Below, in pieces: positions 3,302-53,083 of a stretch of DNA of 64,000 nt. Below the pieces are notes generated by a model. The model searched no databases, was not told where the DNA came from, and was given only the letters and a program-made list of their open reading frames with translations. This stretch comes from an uncultured Planctomycetia bacterium. GTDB lineage: Bacteria > Omnitrophota > Gorgyraeia > 2-02-FULL-51-18. The stretch spans positions 3,194-67,193 of the forward strand of contig CAZTBX010000099.1 in NCBI GenBank assembly GCA_964612035.1. Direction: 5' to 3'. Each line of letters starts with the position of its first letter. Within the stretch, counting starts at the first letter, position 1. A program made the translations under genes and the position numbers.

Positions 3302-3388
3302 ATGTATTCGGTCAGGTTCTTTAAAGAAGAGATCGCCACCGCTTTGAAGAGAAAACGGATATTTGAGGGGAGAAGTATCGATGAATAA
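3302..3388 (+). other. 28-codon upstream ORF (MYSVRFFKEEIATALKRKRIFEGRSIDE), possibly a decayed toxin remnant or a leader peptide
   Basis: ATG at 3302 lies downstream of the promoter. The TAA stop at 3386-3388 overlaps the ATG of the XRE gene at 3381. It sits where a HigB/RelE-like toxin usually precedes this antitoxin type. Confidence 0.25.
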
Positions 3389-4126: not shown

Positions 4127-4135
4127 GGTTGTTAG
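3956..4135 (+). CDS. Hypothetical 59 aa ORF (MISDALSLIDFLKKHLMEYSVKSALFNSDGIRIEGDSFIEIDKIPVQCRTVPLTKGTGC)
   Basis: Open frame from ATG 3956 to TAG 4133-4135. It is just under the 60 aa ORF-track threshold, has no clear RBS, runs through the right 29 bp IR, and overlaps the ORF6N stop by 4 nt. Confidence 0.2.
   Translation: MISDALSLIDFLKKHLMEYSVKSALFNSDGIRIEGDSFIEIDKIPVQCRTVPLTKGTGC

Positions 4136-7573: not shown

Positions 7574-7581
<8 letters not shown>
6400..7581 (+). CDS. lolC: Lipoprotein-releasing system permease (LolC/LolE, FtsX-like)
   Basis: 393 aa with an N-terminal TM segment, a periplasmic MacB-like domain and a C-terminal FtsX 3-TM domain. It is followed by lolD. Confidence 0.8.
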
Positions 7582-8250
<669 letters not shown>

Positions 8251-26315: not shown

Positions 26316-27352
26316 AAAGCGTTTTTGCCGGCCACAAAGCCACGATCTTTATGTTGCTAGTGGCGTCTCTTTTTTACGCGGCCCTCCTTTTCGTCGGGCA
26401 GCCGGCATCGAGATCCGGCGGTGTCGAGCCGGCGCGCGTCGTCCAAAGCCGGCAGCTGCAGGAGATCCGGCAGAGGGAAGAGGTGTTCCGCGAAAATTTC
26501 CGCCGCCATTCGGGAGCCGTGCAGGTTTTTTCTTTCGGGTTCTTGACGCTCTTTTTTTTAGGCCTTTATTTGGACACACGACTGATCGCGGCGCGCAGGG
26601 CTGGCCGACCCTGGATCCCTGGCGGACGCGGGATCGCAGCGTCTCCCTGGGGCCTTTTGGATGCGGCGCAGGTCGTCGCTTTTCTTTTTTTCTCCGAAGT
26701 CGTCATTTCCGGTGTGGAGATGGCGGCGCTTTTTTTCGGGTTCAAACCCATTCCCGGCGAACTGCTTCTCATGCTGAACAGTTTTGTGCGCAATCTCGCC
26801 GTGGCTATTTTCATCGTCTGGCTGGTGCGGAAAAAGTTCGGCCGGTCGCTTGAGGACATCGGCCTCACCGCGACAGATCTCTCGAAGAACGTGAAGCTCG
26901 GCCTTGTCGGTTATGTCGCCATGGTCCCGTTCCTCGTCCTGTCCCTGATGGCGTTGACGGCCTTGTCCCAACTTTATTCGTATGAACCGCCGCCGCAGAA
27001 AGTTGTGCAGATCTTTTTGGAGCAAGCCTCGGAGCCTTATCTTCTTTTTTTCACTTTTTTTGTGGCACTGCTCGGGCCGGTGATCGAGGAGATCTTTTTC
27101 AGGGGGTTTGCGTACAAGGCGCTGCGTTCGCGATACGGGGCCAGGCGGGCGATGATAGCGACGGCGGCCGTGTTCGCCCTGTTCCACATGAATCTTTTTA
27201 TTTTTCTGCCCATATTCGTGCTCGGGATATTTCTAGCGTATCTTTATGAAAAAACGGGGTCGCTGGTGCCTTCGATCACCGCGCATGTCGCGCACAACCT
27301 GATCATGGTCACGCTCACGCTGTTCTTCAGGGCGCTGTCCGTACCCGCATGA
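26312..27352 (+). CDS. CPBP-family (CAAX) intramembrane metalloprotease
   Basis: Multi-TM protein with motifs EEIFFRGF, FALFHM and HVAHN. Confidence 0.7.
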   Translation: MKSVFAGHKATIFMLLVASLFYAALLFVGQPASRSGGVEPARVVQSRQLQEIRQREEVFRENFRRHSGAVQVFSFGFLTLFFLGLYLDTRLIAARRAGRPWIPGGRGIAASPWGLLDAAQVVAFLFFSEVVISGVEMAALFFGFKPIPGELLLMLNSFVRNLAVAIFIVWLVRKKFGRSLEDIGLTATDLSKNVKLGLVGYVAMVPFLVLSLMALTALSQLYSYEPPPQKVVQIFLEQASEPYLLFFTFFVALLGPVIEEIFFRGFAYKALRSRYGARRAMIATAAVFALFHMNLFIFLPIFVLGIFLAYLYEKTGSLVPSITAHVAHNLIMVTLTLFFRALSVPA

Positions 27353-28266
27353 GCCGTCGCCTGAGATCTCTAGGGGAGTTCGAGCTCATCCGGCGCATCC
27401 GCCGCCGTGTGCCTCGCGGTCGCTCGGTGAGCGTTGGCATCGGCGACGATGCCGCGGCCGTGCGGATGAAACCAGGCAAAGAGACGCTTTTTACGACGGA
27501 CCTTCTCATCGAGGGGACGCATTTCCGTCTATCGGAAGCGAGTGCAGGCGACATCGGGCGCAAGGCGCTTGCCGTCAACATCAGTGACATCGCGGCCATG
27601 GGTGGCTTGCCGCGCCATGCGGTGGTGGGGCTCGGTGTTCCGGGGCGCTGCCCGGTGCGTTTCGTCGACGAATTTTATAGAGGGCTGCTCAAGCTTGCGC
27701 GCGAATTCGGCGTGTCGGTGGTCGGGGGGGACACGGTGAGGGCCAGCCGCATTGTCGTGTCTGTCGCGCTTCTCGGTGAGGCGGATAAAAAAACCATGGC
27801 CAGGCGCTCGGGGGCCAAAGTAGGCGACGTGCTATTCGTGACAGGGGCGCTCGGCGCTTCTTATCCGACAAAAAAACACCTGCATTTCACGCCACGCGTC
27901 TCGGAGGCGCAGTTTCTCGTCAAAAATTTTCATATTCACGCCATGATGGACATTTCGGACGGCCTGGCCTCGGACCTGTTCCGCATCGCCGAAGAAAGCC
28001 GCGTCGGGGTCTGGATAGCCGCCGAGGCCGTGCCGCTCACGCCGGGCGCCACGCTCGAGCAGGGTCTTTCCGACGGCGAGGATTTCGAGCTTTTATTCGC
28101 GCTTTCCCCAAAAGACGCGGCGGCGCTGACGCTCGATAAGGCCGGTCAACGCAGCGGTCTCTATCACCCGATCGGAAAGATCGTTGAGCGCCGGCACGGC
28201 ATACGGCTCGTGAGGCGCGGGGTCGCCGAAGCGATGGAACAGAAAGGTTACAAACATTTTCGGTGA
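27349..28266 (+). CDS. thiL: Thiamine-monophosphate kinase
   Basis: AIR-synthase-related fold (GEFELIRRI, GIGDDAAAV, DLLIEGTHF, NISDIAAMGG). Confidence 0.8.
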   Translation: MSRRLRSLGEFELIRRIRRRVPRGRSVSVGIGDDAAAVRMKPGKETLFTTDLLIEGTHFRLSEASAGDIGRKALAVNISDIAAMGGLPRHAVVGLGVPGRCPVRFVDEFYRGLLKLAREFGVSVVGGDTVRASRIVVSVALLGEADKKTMARRSGAKVGDVLFVTGALGASYPTKKHLHFTPRVSEAQFLVKNFHIHAMMDISDGLASDLFRIAEESRVGVWIAAEAVPLTPGATLEQGLSDGEDFELLFALSPKDAAALTLDKAGQRSGLYHPIGKIVERRHGIRLVRRGVAEAMEQKGYKHFR

Positions 28267-38336: not shown

Positions 38337-38867
38337 TTGTCGGACGAAAAAAATATCGTTCTCGTCGGGTTCATGGGCACCGGGAAATCGAGCGTGGGCA
38401 AGGCGCTCGGGAAAAAATTGAAACGTCCCGTCATTGACCTGGATGAAAACATAGAGGCTGCGGAGAAAAGAAGTATCCGCGACATTTTTGAAAAGGACGG
38501 CGAGGCGCATTTCCGCTCCCTTGAAAAAAAAGCCGTCCAGGCGCTTTCGGGTGAACGCGGCGTCGTGATCACGACGGGCGGAGGGGCGGTGCTGGACGAG
38601 GACAACAGGCGCGTGCTGAAGAAAAACGGCATTCTGATCACTTTGTCGGCAACGCCGGAAGCGATCTACACGCGCGTGAAACATTCCGGCCATCGGCCGC
38701 TACTCAACCACGGCGACCCGCTTTCGGAGATCAAGCGCCTTTTGTTGCTGCGTGAACCTTATTATAGGCAGTCGGATATTTCCATCGACACCGACGGAAA
38801 AAAGCCGGCCCAGGTGGCCGAAGAGATCCTGACTGCGTTGGAAGGAAGACTGCATGGCCAAGATTGA
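38337..38867 (+). CDS. aroK: Shikimate kinase
   Basis: P-loop GFMGTGKSSVG. 176 aa. Confidence 0.85.
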   Translation: MSDEKNIVLVGFMGTGKSSVGKALGKKLKRPVIDLDENIEAAEKRSIRDIFEKDGEAHFRSLEKKAVQALSGERGVVITTGGGAVLDEDNRRVLKKNGILITLSATPEAIYTRVKHSGHRPLLNHGDPLSEIKRLLLLREPYYRQSDISIDTDGKKPAQVAEEILTALEGRLHGQD

Positions 38868-39885
38868 TCTGAAAAAACTCCTGGCATTGACCCTGACCCA
38901 TGATTTTGGTCCGGTCACTTTACGGGAACAGCTGAAGGCCCGGGGTTCTGTCGAGGCGATATTGGACGCTACGCCGGACGCAAAGAAGTTTTTAGAGGCG
39001 GCGGATGACGAAATGCAGCTTGCCAAAAAACACGGCGTCGGCATCGTGGCGTATTTCGATGAGCGTTATCCGGCAGACCTGCGCGAGATCTACGACCCTC
39101 CCATTCTACTGTATGTGCAGGGAAAGCTACCGGCGGCCTCCAAGCCCCGCATCGCCGTCGTGGGATCCAGAGACGCTTCGCTTTACGGCCTCCGAATGGC
39201 GCAATCGATCTCGAGAGACTTATCGGCGGCCGGGGCTGTTGTCGTGAGCGGTCTTGCCCGTGGCATCGATACGGCGGCACACGAAGGTGCGCTTTTGGGC
39301 GGCACGGAGACGGTTGCGGTGCTCGGCAGCGGTCTTCTGCATCTTTACCCAAGCGAAAATCGTAAAGTGGCGCAGCGGATAGCCAAAAAAGGAGCTGTGC
39401 TTTCGGAATTCCCACTGCGCATGCATGCCCAGCCCCGTTTTTTTCCGTACCGAAACAGGATCATCAGCGGCCTCTCACGCGCCGTGCTCGTCGTGGAAGC
39501 GCGCGAAAAAAGCGGGGCGCTGATCACGGCGGATGCCGCTCTCGAACAGGGCCGAGACGTTTTTGCCGTACCGGGGAACGCCGATTCGGCGAAGTCCGGA
39601 GGCACCAACAAACTTTTAAAGCAGGGGGCTCGGATGGTGACCTCCGCCGAAGATATCCTTGAGGAACTGCATCTCAAGCGCGTGTCAATGCTGGCGCCGG
39701 CTTTCAGCGATGAGGAGAGCCTGTTTCTATCATTCTGGAGAGACGGTGAGTCGCATCTCCTGGACGAAGTCATCGAAGAAGCGGGTTTCCCCGCCCGCCG
39801 AGCCGCATCACTGGCCACGCTCCTGACGCTGAAAGGTGCCCTGCGCGAACTGCCTGGAAAATATTTCATGAGAAATTCGAATTAA
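38854..39885 (+). CDS. dprA: DNA-processing protein DprA
   Basis: Rossmann-like DprA core (IAVVGSRDASLYG...VVSGLARGIDTAAHEGAL). It sits directly upstream of topA as in many genomes. Confidence 0.85.
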   Translation: MAKIDLKKLLALTLTHDFGPVTLREQLKARGSVEAILDATPDAKKFLEAADDEMQLAKKHGVGIVAYFDERYPADLREIYDPPILLYVQGKLPAASKPRIAVVGSRDASLYGLRMAQSISRDLSAAGAVVVSGLARGIDTAAHEGALLGGTETVAVLGSGLLHLYPSENRKVAQRIAKKGAVLSEFPLRMHAQPRFFPYRNRIISGLSRAVLVVEAREKSGALITADAALEQGRDVFAVPGNADSAKSGGTNKLLKQGARMVTSAEDILEELHLKRVSMLAPAFSDEESLFLSFWRDGESHLLDEVIEEAGFPARRAASLATLLTLKGALRELPGKYFMRNSN

Positions 39886-42150
39886 ATGGAAGCCCTGAAG
39901 AGTATACAAGTCCGTCTGAACGGCGAAGCGAAAACACTGGAGTCTCCAAAAACGCTTGGCGCGCTTCTCGCGGAGCTCTCGATCCCCAGAGAAAAGGTCG
40001 TCGTCGAGCTCAATCTTGACATCGTCCCGCGAGACCGGCTGGACGGGGCGTCCCTGAAAGACGGCGATGAGATCGAGATCGTTCATTTTGTGGGAGGCGG
40101 CGCGCCCGCGCACGCCCTCGTGATCGTCGAGTCGCCAGCCAAATGCAAGACCATCAACAAATATCTCGGCCCTCAATACGAAGTGGCCGCCTCCATGGGC
40201 CACGTGATCGATCTGCCCAAAAGCAAGATGGGCATAGACATCGAGAAGAATTTTGAGCCTCAGTACATCATCGTCCGCGACAAGAAAAAGATACTCGGTG
40301 AACTGCGCCGTAAGGCGAAAGGTAAAAAAGAGATCTACCTCGCCTGCGACCCTGACCGCGAAGGCGAGGCCATCAGCTGGCACCTGAAAAATGAGCTCGG
40401 TGACGGCAAGATCGTGCGCCGCGTGGTGTTCAACGAGATCACGAAAGAAGCGGTGCTGGACGCTTTCCGCCACCCGATGGACATCAACTTGGATCTTGTG
40501 GACGCCCAACAGGCGCGTCGCGTACTTGATCGCCTGGTAGGCTATAGCTTAAGCCCGCTTCTTTGGCAGAAAGTGGGCCGCGGCCTTTCGGCCGGCCGCG
40601 TGCAATCCGTGGCCCTTCGCATGATCGTGGACCAGGAAAGAAAGATCCGGGCGTTCAAGCCCGAAGAGTACTGGAGCATCGAGGCCGAGCTCAAAAAGAA
40701 AAAAGGGGATCGCACGCATTTCACCGCGAAGCTCGAAGAGATCGCGCAGGTCAAGGCCGACCTGAAGAATGAAAAAGCGGCCTCCGAGCATCTAGAGAAG
40801 GCGCGCACCCAGCCTTTCATCGTGAAAGAGGTGAAACGCTCGAAGAAAAAAAGGAATCCCTCGGCCCCGTTCACGACGAGCAAACTCCAGCAGGCGGCCT
40901 ACAACCAGCTTCGTTTCCCGGCCTCCAAGACGATGAGAACGGCGCAGACGCTTTACGAGGGCGTGGAGCTGGGGAGTGAGGGCAGCGTGGGTCTCATCAC
41001 CTACATGAGAACCGATTCCGTGCGCATCTCGGATTCGGCGCTGAAAGAAACGCGCGACTTCATTCTTAAAAAATACGGCAAGCCCTATTTGCCTTCCACG
41101 CCGAATATTTATAAGGCTAAAAAAGGCGCTCAGCAGGCACACGAAGCCATTCGCCCCACGTCGGTGACCAGAATGCCCTCTGATATAGAACCCTTTTTAG
41201 CCCCCGACCAACAGAAGCTTTACACACTGATCTGGGAACAGGCCGTGGCCAGCCAGATGACGCCGGCTTTGATCGCCCAGGAGACGGCGAACATCAGCGC
41301 CGGTGATTGTATTTTCCGCGCCAGCGGCAGCCGCACGGAATTCGCGGGCTTTCTCCGCGTGACGCGTGATGACGACAAGGACAATCCGTTGCCGCCGCTA
41401 GAAGAAGGCGAGGCGCTGGATCTCGTGAACATCGACAAATTCCAGCATTTCACGAAACCCCCGGCGCGTTTCACCGACGCCTCGCTCGTGAAGGCCCTCG
41501 AAGAACAAGGCATTGGCCGGCCGTCCACCTACGCCCCGATCATCGCGACGCTCACCGAGCGCGACTATATCCGCCGCGAAGGCGGCAGCCTCGTGCCGCA
41601 GGAGCTCGGCATGCTGGTCACGGACCTTCTCGTCCAATATTTTTCCAAGGTCATGGACTTCCAATTCACGGCCGGTATGGAAGAAGAGCTGGATCACATT
41701 GAAGAAGGGAAAATAGGCTGGGTCAAAGTGGTGAAAAGCTTCTATTCCGTTTTCAGCGGCCAGCTAGAGATCGCAAAGACCGAGATGCAGACCGTGAAAA
41801 AAGAGAACGAGCCCACGGATGAGATCTGCGAAAAATGCGGTAAGCCGATGGTCATCAAATGGGGCCGCCGCGGGCGATTCATGAGCTGTTCCGGATGGCC
41901 CGAGTGCCGCAACGCCAAGTCCATTTCCACAAACTTTCCGTGTCCGCAGTGCGGAAAAGGAAAGCTGGTCGCCCGCCGGGCCCGCTCCGGCCGTGGGCGC
42001 ACTTTTTACGGCTGCACCGAGTATCCGGCCTGCAATCTCATCGTCAACAAACTGCCGTCGGCGGAGGGTTCCGAGCCGAATGCCGCTCCCGCCGCGGGCG
42101 AAACGGCGCCAGGGCCCGCCGCCGAGGGAACGGAGAGCTCCGATGGATAA
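39886..42150 (+). CDS. topA: DNA topoisomerase I with an in-frame N-terminal ThiS-like ubiquitin-fold domain (residues ~1-72 ending GGG). It is either a genuine fusion or a lost stop between thiS and topA.
   Basis: The first 72 aa (…LNGEAKTL…IVPRDRLDGASLKDGDEIEIVHFVGGG) match the ThiS/MoaD sulfur-carrier pattern including the C-terminal GG. The reading frame continues APAH-ALVIVESPAKCKTINKYLG into a complete Toprim/TopA body with C-terminal Cys4 zinc ribbons. Confidence 0.8.
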   Translation: MEALKSIQVRLNGEAKTLESPKTLGALLAELSIPREKVVVELNLDIVPRDRLDGASLKDGDEIEIVHFVGGGAPAHALVIVESPAKCKTINKYLGPQYEVAASMGHVIDLPKSKMGIDIEKNFEPQYIIVRDKKKILGELRRKAKGKKEIYLACDPDREGEAISWHLKNELGDGKIVRRVVFNEITKEAVLDAFRHPMDINLDLVDAQQARRVLDRLVGYSLSPLLWQKVGRGLSAGRVQSVALRMIVDQERKIRAFKPEEYWSIEAELKKKKGDRTHFTAKLEEIAQVKADLKNEKAASEHLEKARTQPFIVKEVKRSKKKRNPSAPFTTSKLQQAAYNQLRFPASKTMRTAQTLYEGVELGSEGSVGLITYMRTDSVRISDSALKETRDFILKKYGKPYLPSTPNIYKAKKGAQQAHEAIRPTSVTRMPSDIEPFLAPDQQKLYTLIWEQAVASQMTPALIAQETANISAGDCIFRASGSRTEFAGFLRVTRDDDKDNPLPPLEEGEALDLVNIDKFQHFTKPPARFTDASLVKALEEQGIGRPSTYAPIIATLTERDYIRREGGSLVPQELGMLVTDLLVQYFSKVMDFQFTAGMEEELDHIEEGKIGWVKVVKSFYSVFSGQLEIAKTEMQTVKKENEPTDEICEKCGKPMVIKWGRRGRFMSCSGWPECRNAKSISTNFPCPQCGKGKLVARRARSGRGRTFYGCTEYPACNLIVNKLPSAEGSEPNAAPAAGETAPGPAAEGTESSDG

Positions 42151-43024
42151 GTTCGCCGAGAAGTTCCTCGTTTATTTGAAAGTTGAGAAAAATTACTCGC
42201 CGCACACGCTGATCGGTTATTCGCATGACCTTAAAGAATACTACGCCTTTCTCGAAAACGGCGGCGCGCTCGAAGCGGGCAAGGATTCGCTGCGCCGCTA
42301 TCTCGCGCATTTGAACGAAAAAGGCCTTTCCAAGCGCACGGTCAGCCGCCGCATGGCGACCTTAAGGACCTTTTACCGCTTTCTCAAGCGCGAGGGTCAC
42401 GTGAAAGACAATCCGATGGCGTTTCTGAAAAACCCAAAGCTCGAAAAAAAGCTTCCGATGGTGCTCGATGAAGGCGAGGTTAGCCGCCTGCTCGACTCGC
42501 CGGAAGATGACGCGTCGGGCCTGCGTGACAAGGCCATCCTCGAGACGCTGTACTCGACGGGCATGCGCGTTTCCGAGCTCGTGCACATGGACCTGGAAAG
42601 CGTGGACTTCATCGGCGGCGTGTGCCGCGTGCTTGGAAAAGGGAGCAAGGAACGGCTTTGTCCCATCGGCGACCGGGCGCTGCGCTCGATCCGCCGCTAC
42701 CTCGAGGAGAAAGGCCGCGTGACGAAAAAGGCCGATCGGGTGCTTTTCGCGAACCACTCACCGAACCAAAAAGGTTCACGACTCACGGACAGAAGCGTCC
42801 GACGCATCGTGGAAAAATACATCGAGAGAACCTGCCGGCGGGAGAGTATCTCTCCGCACACGCTGCGGCATTCGTTCGCGACGCATCTTCTCAACCGCGG
42901 CGCCGACCTGCGGTCCGTGCAGGAGCTTCTCGGGCATGAAAACCTTTCGACGACGCAGATCTACACGCACGTATCGACACAGCGCCTGAAAGAGGCCTAT
43001 GACAAGGCGCACCCGCGCGCCTAA
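42143..43024 (+). CDS. xerC: Tyrosine site-specific recombinase XerC/XerD
   Basis: N-terminal core-binding domain (FLVYLKVEKNYSPHTLIGY) and catalytic R...HxxR...Y (HTLRHSFATHLL, TQIYTHV). Conserved dprA-topA-xerC order. Confidence 0.8.
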   Translation: MDKFAEKFLVYLKVEKNYSPHTLIGYSHDLKEYYAFLENGGALEAGKDSLRRYLAHLNEKGLSKRTVSRRMATLRTFYRFLKREGHVKDNPMAFLKNPKLEKKLPMVLDEGEVSRLLDSPEDDASGLRDKAILETLYSTGMRVSELVHMDLESVDFIGGVCRVLGKGSKERLCPIGDRALRSIRRYLEEKGRVTKKADRVLFANHSPNQKGSRLTDRSVRRIVEKYIERTCRRESISPHTLRHSFATHLLNRGADLRSVQELLGHENLSTTQIYTHVSTQRLKEAYDKAHPRA

Positions 43025-44315: not shown

Positions 44316-45292
44316 AAAAACTCATCGCAGGGCTTTTATCTCAAGTGTATCGCGCGGGACTCATCGCCACGCAGTCGAGCTACCGCCTTTTTCCTTCCCG
44401 CATACGGAAAGTCCCGGCGCGCGTGATCAGCATCGGAAACATCACCTGGGGTGGCACCGGAAAAACGCCGATGGCCGCGAAGCTCGCCAAGGATCTGTCG
44501 TATTACGGCAAGAGAGTGGCCGTGCTCATCCGCGGCTATGGCATGGATGAAGTGGCCGAGCTTCAGAAGAAGCTGCCCGGCGTGCCGGTGATGGTCGGCC
44601 GCGATCGCGTGCAGTCCGCGCTTTCAGCCATTAAGGAGCACCAGAGCGATCTTCTCATCCTCGACGACGGTTTCCAGCATCTGCGCCTGCATCGCGACCT
44701 CGACATCGTCGCCATCAACACGACGCAGCCGTTCGGCCCCGGCGGGCTTTTGCCGGCCGGCACGCTGAGGGAGCCGCTGGAGCATTTGTCGCGCGCGCAT
44801 ATCTTTGTCCTCACGAAAAGCAACATCGGCGCGAAGAATATCCCCTGGATACGCAAAAAACTGGCGGCCATCAAACCGGACGCACCAGTGTTCGAGGCCG
44901 TGCACCGGCCTTTGCGGTTCATGGACTATGTGAAAGGGCGCATCACGACGCTGGCCGAGATCCGCGGCCGCAAAGTGGCGGCGATCTCAGGCATCGGCGA
45001 CCCTTACTCTTTCGAGAGAAGCGTGGAAAGTCTGGGCGCCGAGATCGTGTTCGCCGCGCGCTACGACGACCATCACCCCTACCGTGCGGGAGAGGTGATG
45101 GATTTCATCAAGCACGCGCGTGCGCTCGGGGTTTCGGAGGCCGTCACGACGGAAAAGGATTTTCACCGGCTTGAACCCCTGCTGAAAAAAGAACTTTCGG
45201 CGGAGGCTGGCTCTTTCAGCTTCCAGGTACTTCAAATAGAATTCCAGATTGGCAATGAAGAAGACTTTATTCGAAGATGTCTTAATTCTTAG
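44312..45292 (+). CDS. lpxK: Tetraacyldisaccharide 4'-kinase
   Basis: P-loop GNITWGGTGKTP. 326 aa. Confidence 0.85.
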   Translation: MKKLIAGLLSQVYRAGLIATQSSYRLFPSRIRKVPARVISIGNITWGGTGKTPMAAKLAKDLSYYGKRVAVLIRGYGMDEVAELQKKLPGVPVMVGRDRVQSALSAIKEHQSDLLILDDGFQHLRLHRDLDIVAINTTQPFGPGGLLPAGTLREPLEHLSRAHIFVLTKSNIGAKNIPWIRKKLAAIKPDAPVFEAVHRPLRFMDYVKGRITTLAEIRGRKVAAISGIGDPYSFERSVESLGAEIVFAARYDDHHPYRAGEVMDFIKHARALGVSEAVTTEKDFHRLEPLLKKELSAEAGSFSFQVLQIEFQIGNEEDFIRRCLNS

Positions 45293-47222
45293 TCTCGTCA
45301 AGACCGCGCAGGCGCTGGTACGCCTTCTGCCGCTCGGTGTGTGCGTGCGCGGGGCCCGGGTGCTCGGCGTGGCGGTTTATTTCCTCTCGAAGCGCCGCAG
45401 GATCGCCTACAAAAATCTGCGCGCCGCGTTCGCCGGCGAAAAAAGCCGCCGCGAGATGAAACGCATCGCGCGCGTGTCCATGGAAAACCTCGTGGCGTCC
45501 GCCGTCGAGCTCTTGAAGGCGCCCGATCTCGACCGCGCGTACGTGGACCGACATGTCCGTATCGACGGAAAAGAACGCTTTGAACCTTATCTTCAGCAAG
45601 GCCGGGGCCTGATATTCCTCACGGCGCATCTGGGCAGCTGGGAATTTTTGAACATCACCGCCAGCATCCTGAATTACCCCATGGTCGCTCTTGCGCGCGT
45701 GCAAAAACATCCGCGCTCGGACGCGTTCCTGAACGAACTGCGTACTTCGAAAGGTAGCCAGGTCATCCATAAAGGCATGCCGATCCGCGAGGCGCTCCGG
45801 TCGCTAAGACGGGGGAAGATACTCGGGATCCTGAGCGACCAGGATGGCGGGAAAAACGGGTGCTTCGTGCGTTTTTTCGGCCGTTTATCGTCTACCCCGA
45901 CGGGTGTGGCGACTTTCGCGATGAGGACCGGAGCCCCGATATTCCCCGCTCTGGTGCATCGTGAAAACCTCGTGGACCACGTCGTGGAAGTTGAAGGTCC
46001 TTTGCGCATGCCCGAGAACGAGGACGATCCCAGGAGAGCCGAACATTTCGTGCTCCAACAGTTCGCGGATGTGCTGGAAGCCAAGATCCGAAAATACCCG
46101 GACCAGTGGCTTTGGGCGCATCGCCGGTGGAAATCAAGCCCTGATCGATCCGTGCTGATCTTAAGCGACGGCAAGGCGGGGCATCTAAACCAGTCGCTGG
46201 CGTTCTTTGCCGCTTATCGCGAGGAGAAAAGAGCGAGAGGTCAGTCCGACGACACGCTGAAGCTCGCGGTGATCGAGGTGCTTTTCAAAAGCGGTCTCCA
46301 TCGTCGTTTTCTCGCCGGGCTCACGCTTCTCACGCGCGGGAGACTGCCTTTCAAGCATACGCTTATGAAATTCGTCCTTGTCGATGAGTGCTATGATACG
46401 GTCATGAAAACTTATGCGGATGTCGTGGTTTCCTGCGGTTCCTCGTTGAGTGGTCTGAATCTGCTCGTCACTTATGAAAATCAGGCGAGGTCCGTGCTGC
46501 TCATGAACCCTCCTGTTCCTTCCGCAAGGTTCGACGCCGTGATCGTCCCTGGCCACGACGAACCCAGACGCGCTTCGAATGTATTTGTCACCGAAGGACC
46601 GCCGGTGATGATCAGTGAGGCGGTGCTGTCCGAGGAAGCCGAAAAACTGAGCACCGAGCTCCGCATCCCCGAAGGCCGACGCATCGGTTTTCTCATCGGC
46701 GGCGATACGGAGTCGCTGAAATTCGAGCCTGTCGTGGTGGAAAACATGATCGGCCAAATGAAGCGTCTCATGAAAGAGATGAACGCGCTGATCTTCGTCA
46801 CTTCTTCGAGGCGCACGCCGCCATGGGCCGATACTTTATTGAAGCAGGCCTTTGAGCGCGAAGAGCGCTGCCCGCTCCTGGTCATCGCCAACGAAGCAAA
46901 CCGGAACGGCGTCGTGAAAGGGATACTGGGGCTCTGCGAGCTCGTGGTGGTCACCGGCGAATCCATGTCCATGCTTTCGGAAGCCGTCGCCTCGGGCAAA
47001 CGTGTCGTGGCCTTGCTGCCGGTGAAGGAAGCGTCGCTGAAGAAAAAACACAGAGCTTTTTTGCGCCAGATGCAGGCCTCCGGCCGCCTGGGCACTGCTG
47101 AGGCCGAGAACCTCTGCGACAGCGTGCGAGGACAGCTCCTGACGACAGCCGTCGATCATCGCAACGGTTCCAGCGACAAAAATCTTCAAGCGCTGCGCGA
47201 AGCGGCACGCAGGCTTCTATGA
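45249..47222 (+). CDS. Two-domain protein: N-terminal LpxL/HtrB-family lipid A late acyltransferase, C-terminal ELM1/DUF1022-like domain
   Basis: Residues ~1-300 carry the LpxL-family region (FLTAHLGSWEF, ILSDQDGG). Residues ~300-657 resemble ELM1-family proteins (ILSDGKAGHLNQSLA). There is no stop between the domains. Confidence 0.6.
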   Translation: MAMKKTLFEDVLILSLVKTAQALVRLLPLGVCVRGARVLGVAVYFLSKRRRIAYKNLRAAFAGEKSRREMKRIARVSMENLVASAVELLKAPDLDRAYVDRHVRIDGKERFEPYLQQGRGLIFLTAHLGSWEFLNITASILNYPMVALARVQKHPRSDAFLNELRTSKGSQVIHKGMPIREALRSLRRGKILGILSDQDGGKNGCFVRFFGRLSSTPTGVATFAMRTGAPIFPALVHRENLVDHVVEVEGPLRMPENEDDPRRAEHFVLQQFADVLEAKIRKYPDQWLWAHRRWKSSPDRSVLILSDGKAGHLNQSLAFFAAYREEKRARGQSDDTLKLAVIEVLFKSGLHRRFLAGLTLLTRGRLPFKHTLMKFVLVDECYDTVMKTYADVVVSCGSSLSGLNLLVTYENQARSVLLMNPPVPSARFDAVIVPGHDEPRRASNVFVTEGPPVMISEAVLSEEAEKLSTELRIPEGRRIGFLIGGDTESLKFEPVVVENMIGQMKRLMKEMNALIFVTSSRRTPPWADTLLKQAFEREERCPLLVIANEANRNGVVKGILGLCELVVVTGESMSMLSEAVASGKRVVALLPVKEASLKKKHRAFLRQMQASGRLGTAEAENLCDSVRGQLLTTAVDHRNGSSDKNLQALREAARRLL

Positions 47223-49321
47223 ACGTTCTTCAGATACTCCCTGAACTCAAGTCCGGCGGCGTCGAACGCGGCACCGTGGACCTCGCCAAACACCTGAAGC
47301 AAAACGGCCACAAAGCCGTGGTGGTGTCGGCCGGCGGCCCGATGGTCGGGGATCTCACTTCTGCCGGCATCACGCACTACGCCCTGCCGGTGCACAAAAA
47401 ATCCCTGTTCGCCATGTGGCAGTCCATGCGGCTTCTCACGCGCATCGTACACTTGGAGTCCATCGAGGTCATTCACGCCCGGAGCCGCGTCCCGGCGCTA
47501 GTGGCGTTCTTCGTCAGCCGCCGCACGCAGGTGCCTTTCGTCACCACCTGTCACGGTTTTTACCGCAAGCATTTTTTGAGCCGTTTCATGGGTTTCGGAA
47601 AGATCGTGATCGTCGCCAGCCACATCATCGGAAAAAGGATGCGTGACGATTTCGGCGTGCCGCAGGCGAAGCTGCGCCTGATCCACCGCGGCGTGGATCT
47701 CGAAGAGTTCAAGTTTCCTCCCGAGGTCCCCGCCGCGAAAAAAGAGGTGGTCATCGGCCTCATCGGGCGCCTGACGCCTATCAAGGGACACGCGTTCTTT
47801 CTGAAAGCCATGGCGCGCGTCACGCGCGTGTTCCCGAACGTGAAGATACAGATCATCGGCGACGCGCCGAAGCCTCAGTACAAAGAAGACCTACTCACAC
47901 TGACGCGGCACCTGGGGCTTTCGCACGCCGTGCAGTTTCTCGGCACGCGTTATGACATCGCAGAACTCCTGTCCCAGATGACGGTGCTTGTCGCGCCCTC
48001 GGTGGGCGAGGAGGCGTTCGGCCGCGTCGTGATCGAGGCGGGTGCCTGCGGCGTGCCAGTGGTGGCGACGCGGATGGGAGGCCTCGTGGACATCATTGAG
48101 AACGAGAAAGACGGACTGCTGGTCTCCGCCGACGACCCGCGTGTCCTCGCAGATGCGGTGCTGCGGCTACTGAAAGACCCGGATCTTGGACGAAAGTTCG
48201 CCGTTTCACTGCGGGAAAAGGTTCAGCGGGAGTTCGGCCTGCCCCTGATGTTCGAAAAAACGCTGCGCGTGTACGAGGAAGCGGTGAACCAGAAGCGTAT
48301 TCTCGTTATCAAGATCAGCGCCGTCGGCGACGTCATCCTCACCGTCCCTTCGCTGCGCGCCCTGCGGCGAAAATACCCGGAGGCTTGGATCTCGGTGCTC
48401 GTGGGCCGCAAATCGAGGAAGATCATCCGCAACTGCCCTTACGTCAACGACACCATTGTGTATGACGAACCGAGAAGATTCCGTCTTTTGGCGAATTTCA
48501 GGATGGCACGGCTTCTGGCGAAAGAAGGCTTTGATATCGTCGTGGACCTGCAAAACAACCGTGCCAGCCATTTTCTTTCTTTTTTCTGCGGGGCAGGGAT
48601 ACGCGCCGGACACACGAACCGCAAGTGGGCGTTCTTTCTGAACCGGAAAACCAAGGACAGTCCGAACACGATGCCCCCGCTCGAGCACCAGTTCCAGGTG
48701 CTGAAGCTTCTGGGCATCGAGGACTACGACAAAAAACTGGAGCTATGGACGGAAAAAGAAGAGGACCAGCGTGTTCGGGTGTTTCTCGAATCGCAATGGG
48801 TGTCCCCGAGCCAGGTGCTCGTGGGGCTGAACCCCGCTTCGTCGCTTCGCTGGCCGACGAAACAGTGGCCGATAGAAAATTTTGCGAGGCTCTGCGATGA
48901 GCTCGGGAAACGGAACATACGCGTCGTGGTGACCGGCTCGAAAGAAGACGCTCCCTCGTTGGACAAGCTGTTCGCGCTGACGCGGCATAAGCCTATCAAC
49001 GCGGTGGGGAAGACCAGCATCACGGAACTCATTGCCCTTATTCGTCGCTGCCAGCTTTTCATCAGCTCGGATTCGGCGCCGATGCACATAGCCGCAAGCG
49101 TGGACATTCCGTTGATCGCTATTTTTGGACCGACGGACCCAAAACGGCATCTCGTGCCTCCGTCGCGTTACCAGGTGTTCTGGAAAGAGATCCATTGCAG
49201 TCCCTGCTATCTCCGAAACTGTCCCATCGGGCACCCGTGCATGAAAAAGATCCCGGTGCAGGACATCTTCGACGCGGCGCTTCATTTCGTCAACCAAGGC
49301 CGCAAGAGAGACCCTGCATGA
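47219..49321 (+). CDS. Bifunctional glycosyltransferase: N-terminal GT4 (GT-B) domain fused to a C-terminal GT9 heptosyltransferase-like domain
   Basis: GT4 motifs EAFGRVVIEAGACGVPVVAT occur within residues ~1-360. The sequence then runs KRILVIKISAVGDVILTVPSLRAL with C-terminal GT9 motifs. Confidence 0.7.
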   Translation: MNVLQILPELKSGGVERGTVDLAKHLKQNGHKAVVVSAGGPMVGDLTSAGITHYALPVHKKSLFAMWQSMRLLTRIVHLESIEVIHARSRVPALVAFFVSRRTQVPFVTTCHGFYRKHFLSRFMGFGKIVIVASHIIGKRMRDDFGVPQAKLRLIHRGVDLEEFKFPPEVPAAKKEVVIGLIGRLTPIKGHAFFLKAMARVTRVFPNVKIQIIGDAPKPQYKEDLLTLTRHLGLSHAVQFLGTRYDIAELLSQMTVLVAPSVGEEAFGRVVIEAGACGVPVVATRMGGLVDIIENEKDGLLVSADDPRVLADAVLRLLKDPDLGRKFAVSLREKVQREFGLPLMFEKTLRVYEEAVNQKRILVIKISAVGDVILTVPSLRALRRKYPEAWISVLVGRKSRKIIRNCPYVNDTIVYDEPRRFRLLANFRMARLLAKEGFDIVVDLQNNRASHFLSFFCGAGIRAGHTNRKWAFFLNRKTKDSPNTMPPLEHQFQVLKLLGIEDYDKKLELWTEKEEDQRVRVFLESQWVSPSQVLVGLNPASSLRWPTKQWPIENFARLCDELGKRNIRVVVTGSKEDAPSLDKLFALTRHKPINAVGKTSITELIALIRRCQLFISSDSAPMHIAASVDIPLIAIFGPTDPKRHLVPPSRYQVFWKEIHCSPCYLRNCPIGHPCMKKIPVQDIFDAALHFVNQGRKRDPA

Positions 49322-50100
49322 CCGCGCCGAAAAAGCGCAGCACGCTCCGCGTCACGATCCTGGCGTTTTTGTGCGTTTTGTCCGCCGTTTATTTTTACCG
49401 GTACAACTACGAAGTGCCGATACTCATGTATCATCATGTCGGCGACTGTTCCACTCTCCCCGGACCCTGCGTTAACCCCAAAACGTTCGAGCGACAGATG
49501 GAATTTCTCAAGGTGCATCGTTATCGCGTGTTTTCGCTGGAGGAACTGCTGAGCCGCCTTCGCGCCGGCGAACCGTTGCCACCCAAAACCGTGGCCATCA
49601 CTTTTGACGACGGCTATATCGACAATATCGATCACGCTTTTCCGGTGTTGAAAAAAATGGGTTTTCCGGCGACGATCTTCATGATCACTCGCAACATCGG
49701 GCAGGAAGGTTCGTTATCGGAGGAGGACCTGGGGATACTGGACAGCTCGGGCGTGTCCATCGGCAGTCATACGGTGAGCCATTCTTTTCTTCCGAATCTC
49801 GACTCAAAGTCCGCTTTGTCTGAGCTCGAGGGATCCAAAAAAGATCTAGAGGGGGTGCTGGGCCACTCGGTCACCCTGTTCAGCTATCCAGCGGGCGGAT
49901 TGACGGCGAGGAGCCTGGCCCTCGTGAAGACGACCGGCTACGAGGGGGCCGTGACCACCAATTATGGCTCCGAACGGCACAACCCTTACGCGCTTCACCG
50001 CATCAAGGTCGGCGAATCAGGCGGAAGTCTGCTCAGCCTCTGGATCAAAACCAGCGGCTTGTATCATTTCGGTAAACGGCGTGTGGAGATCAAGGCGTGA
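49318..50100 (+). CDS. Polysaccharide deacetylase (NodB homology domain), membrane-anchored
   Basis: TM helix followed by ILMYHHV...TFDDGY...H-x-x-H motifs. ATG at 49318 overlaps the upstream stop. The ORF track starts at 49195. Confidence 0.7.
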   Translation: MTAPKKRSTLRVTILAFLCVLSAVYFYRYNYEVPILMYHHVGDCSTLPGPCVNPKTFERQMEFLKVHRYRVFSLEELLSRLRAGEPLPPKTVAITFDDGYIDNIDHAFPVLKKMGFPATIFMITRNIGQEGSLSEEDLGILDSSGVSIGSHTVSHSFLPNLDSKSALSELEGSKKDLEGVLGHSVTLFSYPAGGLTARSLALVKTTGYEGAVTTNYGSERHNPYALHRIKVGESGGSLLSLWIKTSGLYHFGKRRVEIKA

Positions 50101-51068
50101 ACATCCTCATCGTCAACGTCAACTGGATAGGGGACGTGCTTTTTTCGACGCCCGCCATCCGCGCCATCCGAAAAAGATGGCCCGACGCGTATATCGCTTG
50201 TTGGGTCCCCGCACGCTGCGCGCCCGTTCTGCGCAGCAACCCGCATCTGAACGAAGTGCTTACGGGAGGAAATCCACTTGTGCTCAGACGCCGGCGCTTC
50301 GAGGCGGTTTTTCTTTTTCATCGTTCAAGGAGCAAGGCTTTTGCGTGTCTGCTGGCGGGCATTCCAAAACGGTTCGGCTATTCGGGCCGCCGCCGGGATT
50401 GGATGCTCACGCATCGCTGTCCGCCGGCCGACGCATCCATGCATCGCCTGGATCATTTTTTGAACCTCGTGCGTTCTTTTGGCATCGAGGATGACGGAAG
50501 GTCCATGGATTTTTTTCCAAAACCCGGAAGCGACGCCGAGCTCGACCGCCTTTTTGACGAACACGGGATCAAGAAAGACGAACCGTACGTCGTGCTGCAT
50601 CCGGGCGGCAACTGGGACCTGAAGCGCTGGCCGCCGGCGTTTTTCAAGAAATGGGCGAGGCTTCTCATCGACAAAACCCACTGGAAAGTCATTATCTGCG
50701 GAACGGCCGGGGAAGCGTCCCTCGCGCAGGAAGTGCTCGAAGGTTTTTCGGAAAAAGAGATGGTGTCGCTTTCCGGAAAAACCTCTCTCGACGGTCTCGC
50801 CGTGCTTCTCAAGCGCGCGCGGCTTCTTATTTCCAATGATTCGGGGCCTCTCCACGTGGCCGCCACGCAAGGCACGCCGATCGTGGGCGTATTCGGACCC
50901 ACGCTGCCCGAGATCACGGGGCCGCAGGGCGAAGGCCGGTCCGTGATCCTGCGCAAAGACGTCGGCTGTGAAGTGCCGTGTTATTTTAGGGCCTGCAATT
51001 ACCGCCAATGCCTGGACCTGCTTTCTCCCGAAGAGGTGTTTGAAAGGTCCGAGGAGCTTTTGCGTTGA
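50097..51068 (+). CDS. Glycosyltransferase family 9 (LPS heptosyltransferase-like)
   Basis: ILIVNVNWIGDVLFSTPAIRAIRKRWP start with a C-terminal GT9 nucleotide-sugar binding region. Confidence 0.75.
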   Translation: MNILIVNVNWIGDVLFSTPAIRAIRKRWPDAYIACWVPARCAPVLRSNPHLNEVLTGGNPLVLRRRRFEAVFLFHRSRSKAFACLLAGIPKRFGYSGRRRDWMLTHRCPPADASMHRLDHFLNLVRSFGIEDDGRSMDFFPKPGSDAELDRLFDEHGIKKDEPYVVLHPGGNWDLKRWPPAFFKKWARLLIDKTHWKVIICGTAGEASLAQEVLEGFSEKEMVSLSGKTSLDGLAVLLKRARLLISNDSGPLHVAATQGTPIVGVFGPTLPEITGPQGEGRSVILRKDVGCEVPCYFRACNYRQCLDLLSPEEVFERSEELLR

Positions 51069-53083
51069 GGAAAAAACCTTTCGAGGCGAGGAGCATCCTC
51101 GTCGTCACACTGTCCAATCTGGGTGACGTCGTGCTCACACTGCCGGTGATCCACTCGCTTCAGGAAGCGCACCCCAAGGCGGACATGGATGTCATCGTCG
51201 GCGTTGGCGGACAGCCAGTGTTCGAAGGAGACAAACGCATCCGGCGTGTCATCGTGTACGATAAAAGATCCTCCTGGCCGGCCAAGTGGCGTCATCTCAT
51301 GGAGGTACGCCGTTCGCGATACGACATCATCGTGGATCTGCGGCATTCGTTGATAGGGCTTTTAGGCGGAGCCCGCCGCCGGAACGCCTATGTGGATCTT
51401 CGTCTCCGCCGTCTGCATCAGACCGTACGCCATCTGAGGGCGTTGAAGGGGCTTGCGCCCAACCACGAGGAGGTGTCTTTTCTGGCGGGCCGAGCAGACG
51501 CGGGGGATGATCCACTGCCGCGCGAACTGGCCGATGAAAAGATCGTCGTGGCTTCCGTCGGGTCTAAAAGTCATATCAAAAAGTGGCCGGCCATCAGTTA
51601 CGCGGCGCTTCTCGACCGCCTTGCCGTGAACGACGGCTACCGCATCGTTCTCGTCGGAGACGCCTCGGATGCGCCCGATGCGGCCGAGGTGAAGCGCCTC
51701 TTATCATCGCCCGCCCTGGATCTCACCGGGCGCACGGATTTCCGACAGCTTGTTTCGTGCATCAGCCGCGCCGAGCTTGTCGTGACGAATGACAGCGCGC
51801 CGCTGCATATTGCCGATGCGCTGAAAGTCAGGACGCTTGCGATATTCGGGCCGACGGACCCTAGAAAATACGGACCCCGTTTTAGCCAAAGCCGGTCGGT
51901 GAGAAAACCTCTTTTCTGTTCGCCCTGCGAAAAGGCGTTGTGTCGTTTCGGGCACGAATGCATGCGCGAGCTCGGCGTCGAAGAGGTGTACCGCAAAGCG
52001 AGGCAGATCCTCTACGATGAACCCGCCGCCCTTGCCCCGAAAATCCTCATGCTGCGTCTAGACAGAATGGGGGACGTCATGTTTTCGCTTCCCGCCATTG
52101 CGGCGGTGAAAAAAAGATTCCCGAAAAGTTTCGTGTCGCTCATGGTGCGGCCCTATACGCAGCCGCTGGTGGAAGGACATCCTCTGATAGACGAGGTGAT
52201 CCCCTACCGCTACGAGCGCGGCGGCCGGCATCGGACCCCGATAGGCTTCCTCCGTTTTTTGAGCGAGATCGCAGGCAGGCGCTTTGACATGGCCTTCATT
52301 CTTCATCCGAGCAACCGCTCGACCTGGCTGCCATTCCTTGCCGGCATCCCGTATCGCTTCGGTTTTGATTCGCATTGGCCGGCATTGCTGACGAAAGCCG
52401 TGAAAGACAAGCGCAGCGAAGGCAAGAAGAGCGAGGCGGATTACACCGCGGACATCGTGCGTGCCTCCGGAACCGAGGCCGTCGAAAAAAATCCTGTTTT
52501 CCCGGTCTCGAGATTCGACGCCCTGCGTATCGAAAAACGCCTGGCGGCCGAGGGCTGTGCGGGGGACGAGGCCCTGATCGTTCTGCATCCGGGCGCAAGC
52601 TGTGCCTCAAAACGCTGGCCGATACAGCGTTTTTTAGAATTGGCGCGTAAGATCGCCGCATCTCATCCTCATCGAATGGTGGTCATCGGCGGAGCCGAAG
52701 AGATCGGGAATGCCGGGTGCTGGACGGAGTTCCGAGACCGCGTGCTCGATCTCACGGGCTGTTTGGATCCGAAAGAGCTGGCCGCGCTGCTCAAGCGCTG
52801 CGAACTGCTTGTATCCAACGACTCCGGCCCCGTGCATGTCGCCTCGGCCGTTGGCACACCCACGGTCGCTATCTTCGGCCGGAATCAGGCTGGACTCAGT
52901 GTGGCGCGGTGGCGGGCGCTGGGGGAAGGTCACACCGTTCTCAGGGAGGATGTCGGCTGCGTGGTGTGTCTAGCGCATCGCTGCAGCATTGATTTTGAAT
53001 GCCTCAAAGCTGTTCAAGTCGAAAGCGTGTATGAGGCCATTCAAAAGACACTGGGCGCCCGGAAACATGCGCTACAAGCTTAG
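51065..53083 (+). CDS. Tandem GT9-GT9 protein (two complete heptosyltransferase-like domains in one chain)
   Basis: Domain 1 begins ILVVTLSNLGDVVLTLPVIHSL. Domain 2 begins ~residue 320 with ILMLRLDRMGDVMFSLPAIAAV. Each has its own C-terminal GT-B half. Confidence 0.7.
   Translation: MRKKPFEARSILVVTLSNLGDVVLTLPVIHSLQEAHPKADMDVIVGVGGQPVFEGDKRIRRVIVYDKRSSWPAKWRHLMEVRRSRYDIIVDLRHSLIGLLGGARRRNAYVDLRLRRLHQTVRHLRALKGLAPNHEEVSFLAGRADAGDDPLPRELADEKIVVASVGSKSHIKKWPAISYAALLDRLAVNDGYRIVLVGDASDAPDAAEVKRLLSSPALDLTGRTDFRQLVSCISRAELVVTNDSAPLHIADALKVRTLAIFGPTDPRKYGPRFSQSRSVRKPLFCSPCEKALCRFGHECMRELGVEEVYRKARQILYDEPAALAPKILMLRLDRMGDVMFSLPAIAAVKKRFPKSFVSLMVRPYTQPLVEGHPLIDEVIPYRYERGGRHRTPIGFLRFLSEIAGRRFDMAFILHPSNRSTWLPFLAGIPYRFGFDSHWPALLTKAVKDKRSEGKKSEADYTADIVRASGTEAVEKNPVFPVSRFDALRIEKRLAAEGCAGDEALIVLHPGASCASKRWPIQRFLELARKIAASHPHRMVVIGGAEEIGNAGCWTEFRDRVLDLTGCLDPKELAALLKRCELLVSNDSGPVHVASAVGTPTVAIFGRNQAGLSVARWRALGEGHTVLREDVGCVVCLAHRCSIDFECLKAVQVESVYEAIQKTLGARKHALQA

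Follow-up and report, generated by a model that had tools for sequence, protein, structure and literature searches.

We analysed a stretch of 64,000 nucleotides from an uncultured bacterium of the candidate phylum Omnitrophota (GenBank assembly GCA_964612035.1, contig CAZTBX010000099.1, positions 3,194 to 67,193 of the forward strand; hereafter the window), in which a complete gene for the sulfur carrier ThiS is joined in frame to the 5' end of topA, the gene for DNA topoisomerase I. The thiS::topA fusion in the window is almost certainly real and not an artefact; it is a genuine and ancient trait, characteristic of a large part of the phylum. The encoded protein may be cleaved after the Gly-Gly of its ThiS domain, in the manner of a ubiquitin-like precursor. 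An earlier annotation made from the nucleotide letters (the original prediction) had recognised a ThiS-family domain running in frame into a canonical TopA, and had left a choice between a real fusion and a frameshift or lost stop. Both observations are borne out here, and the real fusion is what the recurrence of the junction supports.

The ThiS-TopA protein and its spread

The fusion gene is one uninterrupted open reading frame (ORF) of 754 codons at 39886-42150 on the + strand. Its ATG directly abuts the stop codon TAA (39883-39885) of dprA. The 754-residue product (~83 kDa) consists of a full ThiS (residues 1-72), a five-residue linker (APAHA) and a complete TopA, laid out as follows.

39886-40101, + strand: ThiS domain, residues 1-72 (PF02597, TIGR01683)
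40090-40101, + strand: VGGG tail of ThiS, residues 69-72 (putative processing site after Gly71-Gly72, or flexible hinge)
40093-40101, + strand: Gly codons at the end of ThiS
40102-40116, + strand: linker Ala-Pro-Ala-His-Ala
40117-42150, + strand: TopA, residues 78-754 and stop codon (TIGR01051, PF01751, PF01131, two copies of PF01396)
40117-40440, + strand: Toprim domain
40483-41736, + strand: Topoisom_bac core
~41821-42045, + strand: two C4 zinc ribbons, followed by a disordered acidic and Pro-rich tail

The Pfam family ThiS (PF02597) covers residues 9-72 (E=3.6e-16 for the isolated domain; 59.9 bits against a cutoff of 22.5). The NCBIfam equivalog "sulfur carrier protein ThiS" (TIGR01683) aligns to residues 10-72 over profile positions 2-64 of 64, with a score of 72.3 bits against the curated cutoff of 37.45. 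The domain ends in DEIEIVHFVGGG (...EIVHFVGGG), the same natural C terminus as that of B. subtilis ThiS (PDB 1tyg_B), and all six sequence matches in the PDB were ThiS or closely related small beta-grasp chains (2k5p/3cwi, 1tyg_B, 2cu3 and 1f0z). After APAHA the frame enters LVIVESPAKCKTI, where position 1 of TIGR01051 (topA_bact) aligns to residue 78; this profile scored 794 bits against a cutoff of 456 over residues 78-680. The translation contains the motifs LVIVE82SP (VIVESP), D155-P-D157-R-E159-G-E (DPDREGE) and GLITY373MRTDS, which, from established knowledge of E. coli TopA, we take to be catalytic (the Toprim Glu, the DxD cluster and the active-site Tyr).

An AlphaFold2 model of the fusion, built on an alignment of 122 sequences, had a mean predicted local distance difference test score (pLDDT) of 90.3 over all 754 residues and a predicted template modelling score (pTM) of 0.81. 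Residues 1-68 were predicted as a beta-grasp in the order beta-beta-alpha-beta-beta...beta (strands 7-11, 14-18, 38-42, 45-47 and 62-67; helix 24-30) with pLDDT values of 81-96. The pLDDT fell below 50 only at residues 69-72 (VGGG) and in the C-terminal tail (727-754). By every sequence and predicted-fold measure other than a free C terminus, the N-terminal domain is thus a genuine ThiS, and the C-terminal part reads as an unremarkable TopA. In the model the fusion is two autonomous domains with an exposed flexible segment, of which Gly-Gly is the only conserved feature.

A search with the full-length protein returned the window product (P0269) and ~95 further clusters at 90% identity with the architecture ThiS+Toprim+Topoisom_bac+Zn_ribbon. 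At least 99 distinct fused relatives, 55-75% identical, were found in assemblies from NCBI, JGI, ENA and Logan, and all that carry a name are Candidatus Omnitrophica/Omnitrophota. From full-length clusters, fragments and cluster members, 99 junctions could be extracted. It was the full-length query that revealed this breadth; the 167-residue N terminus as query retrieved mostly short TopA fragments and only eight fusions. A chance juxtaposition is excluded by the scores of both halves, far above the curated cutoffs of their families, and by the recurrence of the junction in ~100 independent sequences.

The fused junction was also present in five other loci from different samples (L001, L002, L085, L086 and L090). 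At the DNA level, the window, L001, L002, L085 and L086 all have it in frame. The Gly codons at the junction vary synonymously among loci (GGA GGC GGC, GGG GGC GGG, GGC GGC GGC or GGC GGC GGG), and the linkers of the five loci compared at the DNA level differ too. Such variation points to constraint on the protein and not to a repeated assembly error.

An exhaustive search of 1.84 billion cluster representatives placed about five fusion representatives among the best 150, a figure that undercounts because full-length fusions cluster with other TopAs. The other N-terminal extensions of TopA in that search were Lys/Ala-rich tails or zinc ribbons. A scan of genome contigs with the pattern LVIVESP[AT]K gave, among the matches listed, ordinary TopA or free ThiS loci of other phyla and no Omnitrophota genome. 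As far as these sequence searches reach, the ThiS-TopA architecture is confined to the Omnitrophota lineage and rare outside it. Public labels call the fused proteins either "type I DNA topoisomerase" or "hypothetical protein", and our literature searches found no earlier description of a ThiS-topoisomerase fusion.

The fused ThiS domains have kept the features of the free protein. All 84 that were compared with TIGR01683 matched it. The ratio of nonsynonymous to synonymous substitution rates (dN/dS) over the ThiS codons was 0.09 in the only closely related pair with DNA (L087/L090, 91% nucleotide identity); in more distant pairs, whose synonymous sites are saturated, it was at most 0.42. When the fused domains were aligned with 71 free ThiS ending at Gly-Gly, a set picked by similarity to the fused profile and so biased towards agreement, the two groups had in common the conserved columns N12, G13, E14, L27, L28, L31, V38, E41, N43, I46, G60, D61, E64, I65, V66, F68, V69 and G70-72; no column of this alignment was conserved in the fused set alone. 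Among free ThiS proteins the nearest relatives, from Acidobacteriota, Verrucomicrobiota and other groups, are 44-56% identical, and the one viewed in its locus lies in a thiE-thiS-thiG-thiF operon. Judged from these comparisons, the fused ThiS is under purifying selection, descends from the canonical ThiS of the thiamine pathway and still resembles it.

Locus states and the origin of the fusion

A neighbour-joining tree of the TopA part splits the fused sequences into at least three deep clades, with unfused sequences between them. Either the fusion is old and was later lost several times, or it arose more than once; a neighbour-joining tree cannot decide between the two. Fused, plain and split forms of TopA all occur, and several lineages have a TopA without the ThiS domain. 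The genes that border the fusion in the window are the following.

38854-39885, + strand: dprA (PF02481, E=2.2e-78), its stop codon abutting the fusion ATG
41993-43024 (as listed), + strand: xerC-type tyrosine recombinase (PF00589, PF02899)

The gene order aroC-aroK-dprA-[ThiS-topA]-xerC-kdtA-lpxK is identical in the window, L001, L002 and L090. In distant fused lineages the upstream part differs (a PIG-L gene is inserted in L085, and L086 has no dprA), yet both loci retain the fusion and the downstream xerC-kdtA-lpxK. Downstream of topA, xerC was present in every related locus examined. It starts within ~20 nucleotides of the topA stop in L001, L085 and L086; the listed start in the window is a GTG 158 nucleotides inside topA, and the true one is probably near 42150.

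As a check, the original prediction had suggested looking for a separate thiS in orthologous dprA-topA loci. Such a gene was found, and with it two further states, so that one synteny holds no thiS, a separate overlapping thiS, or a fused one. Two Omnitrophota loci of the same synteny (L083/L084) have a plain topA and no thiS, the topA ATG overlapping the dprA stop (TAATG in L083). The separate state emerged from a metagenome scan with the pattern GGNGGNGGN-NNN-TRATG-N9-LVIVES, which matched nine loci (L091-L099, ~7 distinct sequences), every one with a separate thiS overlapping topA. Here thiS encodes 66-68 residues (MELTVNG...EIVHFVGGG plus zero or one residue; 80-85 bits against TIGR01683), its stop overlaps the topA ATG (TGATG or TAATG), and topA begins MAK[N/H/Q]LVIVESPAK. 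Most of these ThiS proteins end not at Gly-Gly but at GGG and one residue more (A, S, V or G). The Gly codons of the ThiS tail in L091-L099 (GGCGGAGG/GGAGGC) lie 5-9 nucleotides upstream of the topA ATG and double as a Shine-Dalgarno sequence.

The only long split locus that was examined in full, L095, shows the Omnitrophota synteny, in the order pilD-aroC-aroK-(small ORF)-dprA-thiS-topA-xerC. Fused and unfused Omnitrophota TopAs alike share 52-57% identity with the TopA of L095. The two genes are placed as follows.

L095, 5903-6106, - strand: thiS
L095, 3822-5903, - strand: topA

Joining a split junction would give GGG-[A]-[M]-A-K-N-LVIVESP, that is, a linker of five residues, or of four where thiS stops right after GGG (L094). 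The commonest linkers among the fused proteins have five (35/99) and four residues (10/99), typically A-x-A-K/H/E-A. Because these lengths equal those predicted for read-through, the fusion is best explained by a translationally coupled gene pair that lost its stop/start overlap. The anatomy of the loci suggests that an ancestral thiS sat between dprA and topA with its stop overlapping the topA start (TGATG), an arrangement that a related lineage still has. Loss of the overlap would have joined two complete proteins end to end, and the linker of four to five residues would then be made up of one extra residue of ThiS, the Met that formerly started TopA and three further N-terminal residues of TopA.

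Two contigs depart from the fused arrangement in ways of their own. One, L087 (1.2 kb), matches the fused L090 at 91% identity through dprA and thiS up to GGCGGCGG, beyond which its last 25 nucleotides are unrelated. Its end (1190-1232, compared with L090 3200-3260) reads GGGS-stop overlapping ATG GCG AAA AAC CTT GTG (MAKNLV). The split junction sits within the fused crown clade; it could have arisen by true fission or recombination, or the contig end could be chimeric, and it was given no weight. In L002 (337-2542; GCA_900206355.1), a frameshift inside Topoisom_bac breaks the fusion gene into ORFs 337-1062 and 1004-2542. This assembly error, which lies away from the ThiS junction, made P0001 look like a 241-residue "ThiS+Toprim" protein.

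The Gly-Gly junction and its possible processing

For ThiF to adenylate ThiS and for ThiS to be thiocarboxylated, the carboxylate of Gly-Gly must be free. As encoded in the window, Gly72 is peptide-bonded to Ala73 with no stop codon between them, so that this carboxylate is not free in the primary product. In the 99 fused junctions Gly71 and Gly72 are invariant and Gly70 is present in 97. The first linker residue (P1') is Ala in 75, Ser in 18, Lys in three, Gly in two and Thr in one; apart from Lys it is always small, and it is never Pro. The linker is otherwise unconserved, rich in A, K, G, S and P, and 4-35 residues long (mode 5).

The most economical interpretation has the protein cleaved behind Gly-Gly in the manner of a ubiquitin-like precursor, since the ThiS domain is under the constraint of a working ThiS, shows no sign of a new interface and no fixed tether length, and needs a free Gly-Gly. 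The small P1' residue and the flexible VGGG, the one stretch of low confidence that separates the two well-predicted domains, also make such a cut plausible. We give this model as a whole a probability of about 0.5. That ThiS would have to be released by proteolysis in order to carry sulfur, as the original prediction held, is a reasonable inference from the sequence, and the invariant Gly-Gly, the variable linker and the precedent of cleaved MoaD-MoaE fusions now motivate it better. A C-terminal processing peptidase, for which the JAMM/MPN+ type is the obvious candidate, would cut the polyprotein after Gly71-Gly72 and release a ThiS with a free Gly-Gly carboxylate and a TopA with a normal short N terminus; in the split-gene relatives the same peptidase would trim the single residue after GGG. 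No start codon of its own is conserved for topA, and the TopA of the cell is therefore synthesised as the fusion. The uncleaved fusion has DGDEIEIVHFVGGGAPAHALVIVESPAK as its junction-spanning tryptic peptide, and the TopA expected after cleavage begins with APAHALVIVESPAK.

Extra residues beyond GGG are found outside the fusion as well. Among the 119 standalone short ThiS proteins closest in sequence to the fused domain, 48 carry 1-16 residues after GGG, although broken-off pieces of longer fusions may be among them. Together with the single additional residue of most split-locus ThiS, this makes C-terminal trimming of ThiS seem common. One such protein, P0390 (L088 8001-8210), ends in GGGLCT and is encoded in a thiE-thiS-thiG-thiF operon in which the end of thiS overlaps the start of thiG. 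The extensions past GGG (P0390-P0508) thus suggest either widespread C-terminal trimming or that some are fragments of ThiS-ThiG fusions.

Several observations weigh against cleavage. With a linker of four to five residues, a protease might be hindered by the nearness of the first Toprim strand to the scissile bond. The Gly-Gly could also be invariant because it is needed as a hinge, or because a partner recognises it when binding the uncleaved tail. No ThiF, ThiG or JAB/MPN domain was found by Pfam in 50 ORFs of the window, a scan that left aside several smaller ORFs and the syntenic ilv/leu/aro genes; the original prediction had likewise seen no thiF, thiG or JAMM gene there. The fetched flanks of related loci, whatever the state of topA, contained no ThiF, ThiG, ThiH or JAB/MPN gene either. 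At the level of the phylum, only 38 of 176 complete Omnitrophota genomes have thiG (K03149), and thiE, thiC, thiL and iscS are each present in at least 167 of the 176 (bioRxiv 10.64898/2026.06.07.730766). For genome 231, a Velamenicoccia metagenome-assembled genome (MAG) of 93% completeness, the available part of the KEGG orthology (KO) list contains K03154 thiS, K03168 topA, thiC, thiE, thiL, K21029 moeB, moaD and K21140 mec (a JAMM); in that part thiG, thiF and thiH are not listed, although thiS is (Seymour et al., 2023, PMC10066038). The joint listing of thiS, topA, moeB and mec in this MAG, by contrast, speaks for the plausibility of cleavage. Both data sets describe Omnitrophota genomes irrespective of whether they carry the fusion, and their bearing on fusion carriers is only a lead. 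With thiG in so few genomes, a role of ThiS outside thiamine is possible, and the classical need for a free ThiS may be missing in many carriers. Genome 231 also lists K22699, presumably a sulfide-dependent Thi4-type thiazole synthase.

The alternatives differ in what becomes of the ThiS domain. The fusion could be real and never cleaved, ThiS staying on TopA as a ubiquitin-like module that recruits the enzyme to an E1-like or other ThiS-binding partner, serves as a regulatory or stability element, or has its tail recognised without thiocarboxylation; we consider such a permanent tether possible but doubtful. It would fit the flanks examined, in which no protease gene is linked to the locus, the stability of the fusion across deep clades, and the model, in which both domains fold confidently in one chain. 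Since thiG occurs in a minority of the complete genomes and is not in the available list of genome 231 despite its thiS KO, the retention of ThiS would also need a reason other than thiazole. However, no position conserved specifically in the fused set, and hence no sign of a new interface, was found in the alignment; a low-complexity linker of 4-35 residues argues against a fixed docking geometry; and Gly-Gly, which is relevant only to C-terminal chemistry, is invariant. The permanent ubiquitin-like domains of eukaryotes typically lose it. Moreover, TopA does not need ThiS in cis, given that several lineages have TopA without the domain and one has a separate thiS. Because ThiS may serve a non-thiazole role or never be released, the tether keeps the weight stated above. 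Alternatively, ThiS could be functionless and kept only because topA, once coupled and then fused, no longer had a ribosome-binding site and start of its own, so that deletion of thiS would silence an essential gene. We regard such a ratchet as unlikely. It is consistent with the split loci, where thiS stop and topA ATG share nucleotides and the GGAGG-like Gly codons are the sole Shine-Dalgarno-like sequence, with the fused loci, in which no internal start is conserved, and with the rarity of thiG in the phylum. But a mere spacer would not keep an equivalog-level ThiS in 84 of 84 cases, nor the dN/dS of 0.09, nor all the columns of free ThiS, invariant Gly-Gly included. The domain was also cleanly lost more than once, topA then being coupled directly to dprA (TAATG, L083), which indicates that such a ratchet can be escaped.

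Two further explanations would dispense with a single joined product. The original prediction had pointed to a GTG at the junction as a potential independent topA start and to a TGA in the +1 frame; both are present in the window (40120-40122, Val79, and 40121-40123), and TopA might be made from that GTG while a programmed frameshift into the TGA ended ThiS, giving two products with no proteolysis. We rejected this highly improbable scheme for lack of conservation. The GTG codon is absent in L001 (GTC), as it is in L086, where LVIV contains no GTG, and both loci also lack the +1 TGA; neither is a conserved feature. The only Shine-Dalgarno-like motif, GGGAGG (40092-40097), lies 22 nucleotides upstream of the GTG, too far for a start, and no slippery sequence is conserved, as the Gly codons vary synonymously. 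A frameshifted ThiS would in any case end in GGG and RPRTPS, still with no free Gly-Gly. As for an artefact, in which a lost stop or an indel made one gene out of thiS and topA in this contig, the split thiS and topA of the related lineage, and the split junction of L087 in an otherwise fused clade, show states that a single-base error could interconvert. Against this stand ~100 independent assemblies with the same in-frame junction but different nucleotides and linkers, the window linker APAHA, which is not a frameshifted TGATG overlap, and the visible assembly error of L002, which lies inside topA and not at the junction. With at least 99 relatives and five other loci that vary synonymously at the junction, we discard such an artefact, whose probability we take to be negligible.

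Beyond cleavage itself, we tentatively propose, as a rather unlikely extension, that the TopA of Omnitrophota is the C-terminal part of a ubiquitin-like precursor, a bacterial and independently evolved counterpart of the ubiquitin-ribosomal-protein fusions. The released ThiS would then act outside thiamine synthesis, as an alternative sulfur carrier or a TtuB/SAMP-like modifier, with activation by a MoeB-type E1 and recycling by a JAMM protease, and its stoichiometric co-production with TopA would have a function and not be accidental.

Neighbouring genes and known systems

Two genes upstream of the fusion in the window bear on its context and are listed for that purpose.

27349-28266, + strand: thiL, thiamine-phosphate kinase (TIGR01379, 273.8 bits against a cutoff of 184), 11.6 kb upstream
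24350-25528, + strand: NifS/IscS-type cysteine desulfurase (PF00266, E=2.8e-82)

The first confirms the thiL that the original prediction had placed nearby. The second scored 483 bits against TIGR03402, below the equivalog cutoff of 530, and is a possible sulfur source for any ThiS thiocarboxylate. In supplementary file 3 of PMC10066038, the "thiamine biosynthesis" module, as stored, comprises only K03147 (thiC) and the hydroxymethylpyrimidine (HMP)/HMP-P kinase. Since no thiazole step is listed there, the published figure of >75% of Omnitrophota with thiamine biosynthesis is not in itself evidence of the thiazole branch. KO tables will, moreover, count the TopA fusion as a thiS.

In the split lineage, L095 carries between aroK and dprA a gene for a retropepsin-like aspartyl protease of 137 residues (7231-7644, - strand; PF13975/PF13650). 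As a candidate processing enzyme it was rejected, since no aspartyl-protease domain was detected in the small ORFs upstream of dprA in L083, L085 and L086 and the protease is not linked to the fusion.

Downstream of xerC-kdtA-lpxK, the window contains a cluster for the lipopolysaccharide (LPS) core (45249-53083) with unusually large fused enzymes, the first two of which are conserved in L001, L085 and L086.

45249-47222: Lip_A_acyltrans+Elm1-like
47219-49321: GT4+GT9
51065-53083: double GT9

At the other end of the window, a gene for an McsB-like ATP:guanido phosphotransferase (9425-10807) immediately precedes that for a double-AAA+ chaperone of the ClpC type with Clp_N repeats (10828-13305); they make up a protein-arginine-kinase/ClpC pair in a bacterium with an LPS (diderm) set of genes. 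An HTH_3 regulator (3363-3710, + strand) stands near a divergent gene for an ORF6N-domain protein (4132-4668, - strand), and another ORF6N protein is encoded beside xerC in the split locus L095 (2170-2916, - strand). These ORF6N and HTH_3 genes may be remnants of mobile elements or a toxin-antitoxin-like pair.

A complete and constrained ThiS joined to an unrelated essential housekeeping enzyme across much of an uncultured phylum is unusual, the known fusions of ThiS/MoaD carriers being to the carrier's own pathway partner. The series from no thiS through a coupled pair to a fused gene within one synteny shows how overlapping stop and start codons become polyproteins. The fusion poses the questions of whether a bacterial topoisomerase is matured by ubiquitin-like Gly-Gly processing, and by which peptidase, and of what ThiS does in organisms mostly without ThiG. 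There is a practical side, too: pathway calls by KO or Pfam will score "thiS present" from a topoisomerase gene, which may mislead reconstructions of thiamine synthesis in Omnitrophota.

That a ThiS/MoaD carrier can be fused upstream of another protein is already a known principle; among the sequences and literature searched, no precedent was found for ThiS fused to a topoisomerase. The closest parallels are the MoaD-MoaE fusions (MoaX of M. tuberculosis, DR2607 of D. radiodurans and archaeal SAMP1-MoaE), in which, as in ThiS-TopA, a beta-grasp carrier of the ThiS/MoaD family with an intact Gly-Gly stands N-terminal to, and in frame with, a second complete protein. The activity of MoaX depends on a cut between Gly82 and Ser83, made by a protease still to be identified (PMC4326299). 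The MoaD-MoaE of D. radiodurans is cut by the JAMM protease DR0402, and linear SAMP1 fusions are substrates of HvJAMM1 of Haloferax (PMC8832034). Both kinds of fusion have a small residue after Gly-Gly, Ser in MoaX and Ala or Ser in 93 of 99 ThiS-TopA proteins. The partner in MoaD-MoaE is the carrier's own enzyme partner from the same pathway, whereas that in ThiS-TopA is an unrelated essential topoisomerase, and the cleavage is only proposed.

In the eukaryotic precursors Ub-eL40 and Ub-eS31, a beta-grasp protein ending in Gly-Gly precedes an unrelated essential ribosomal protein, and both are needed separately. ThiS-TopA resembles them as a beta-grasp Gly-Gly protein joined directly, or nearly so, to an essential housekeeping protein. 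Ubiquitin, however, is a protein modifier with dedicated deubiquitinases, whereas ThiS is a sulfur carrier, its fusion evolved independently, out of two overlapping genes, and its processing is only a hypothesis. In HcyS-Ala/HcyD of Wolinella, QbsE/QbsD of Pseudomonas and CysO/Mec+, the Gly-Gly is reportedly masked by one or more extra residues and exposed by a JAMM-type metalloprotease, as described in work by Begley and Ealick. The ThiS of the split loci and many free ThiS have such extra residues after GGG, like the trimmed carriers HcyS, QbsE and CysO. The extension in ThiS-TopA is an enzyme of 680 residues, in contrast to one or two in those carriers, which encode the protease next to the carrier, whereas the locus described here does not. 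Compared with canonical free ThiS (ThiF/ThiG/ThiH(O)), the fused domain matches at equivalog level, is conserved at the same positions and ends in ...EIVHFVGGG like B. subtilis ThiS; the free protein has a free C terminus and linkage to thi genes, and the fused one has neither, being linked to dprA, topA and xerC. On the analogy of these systems, and at even odds, we take as our working model that ThiS-TopA would behave as a ubiquitin-like precursor processed at Gly-Gly.

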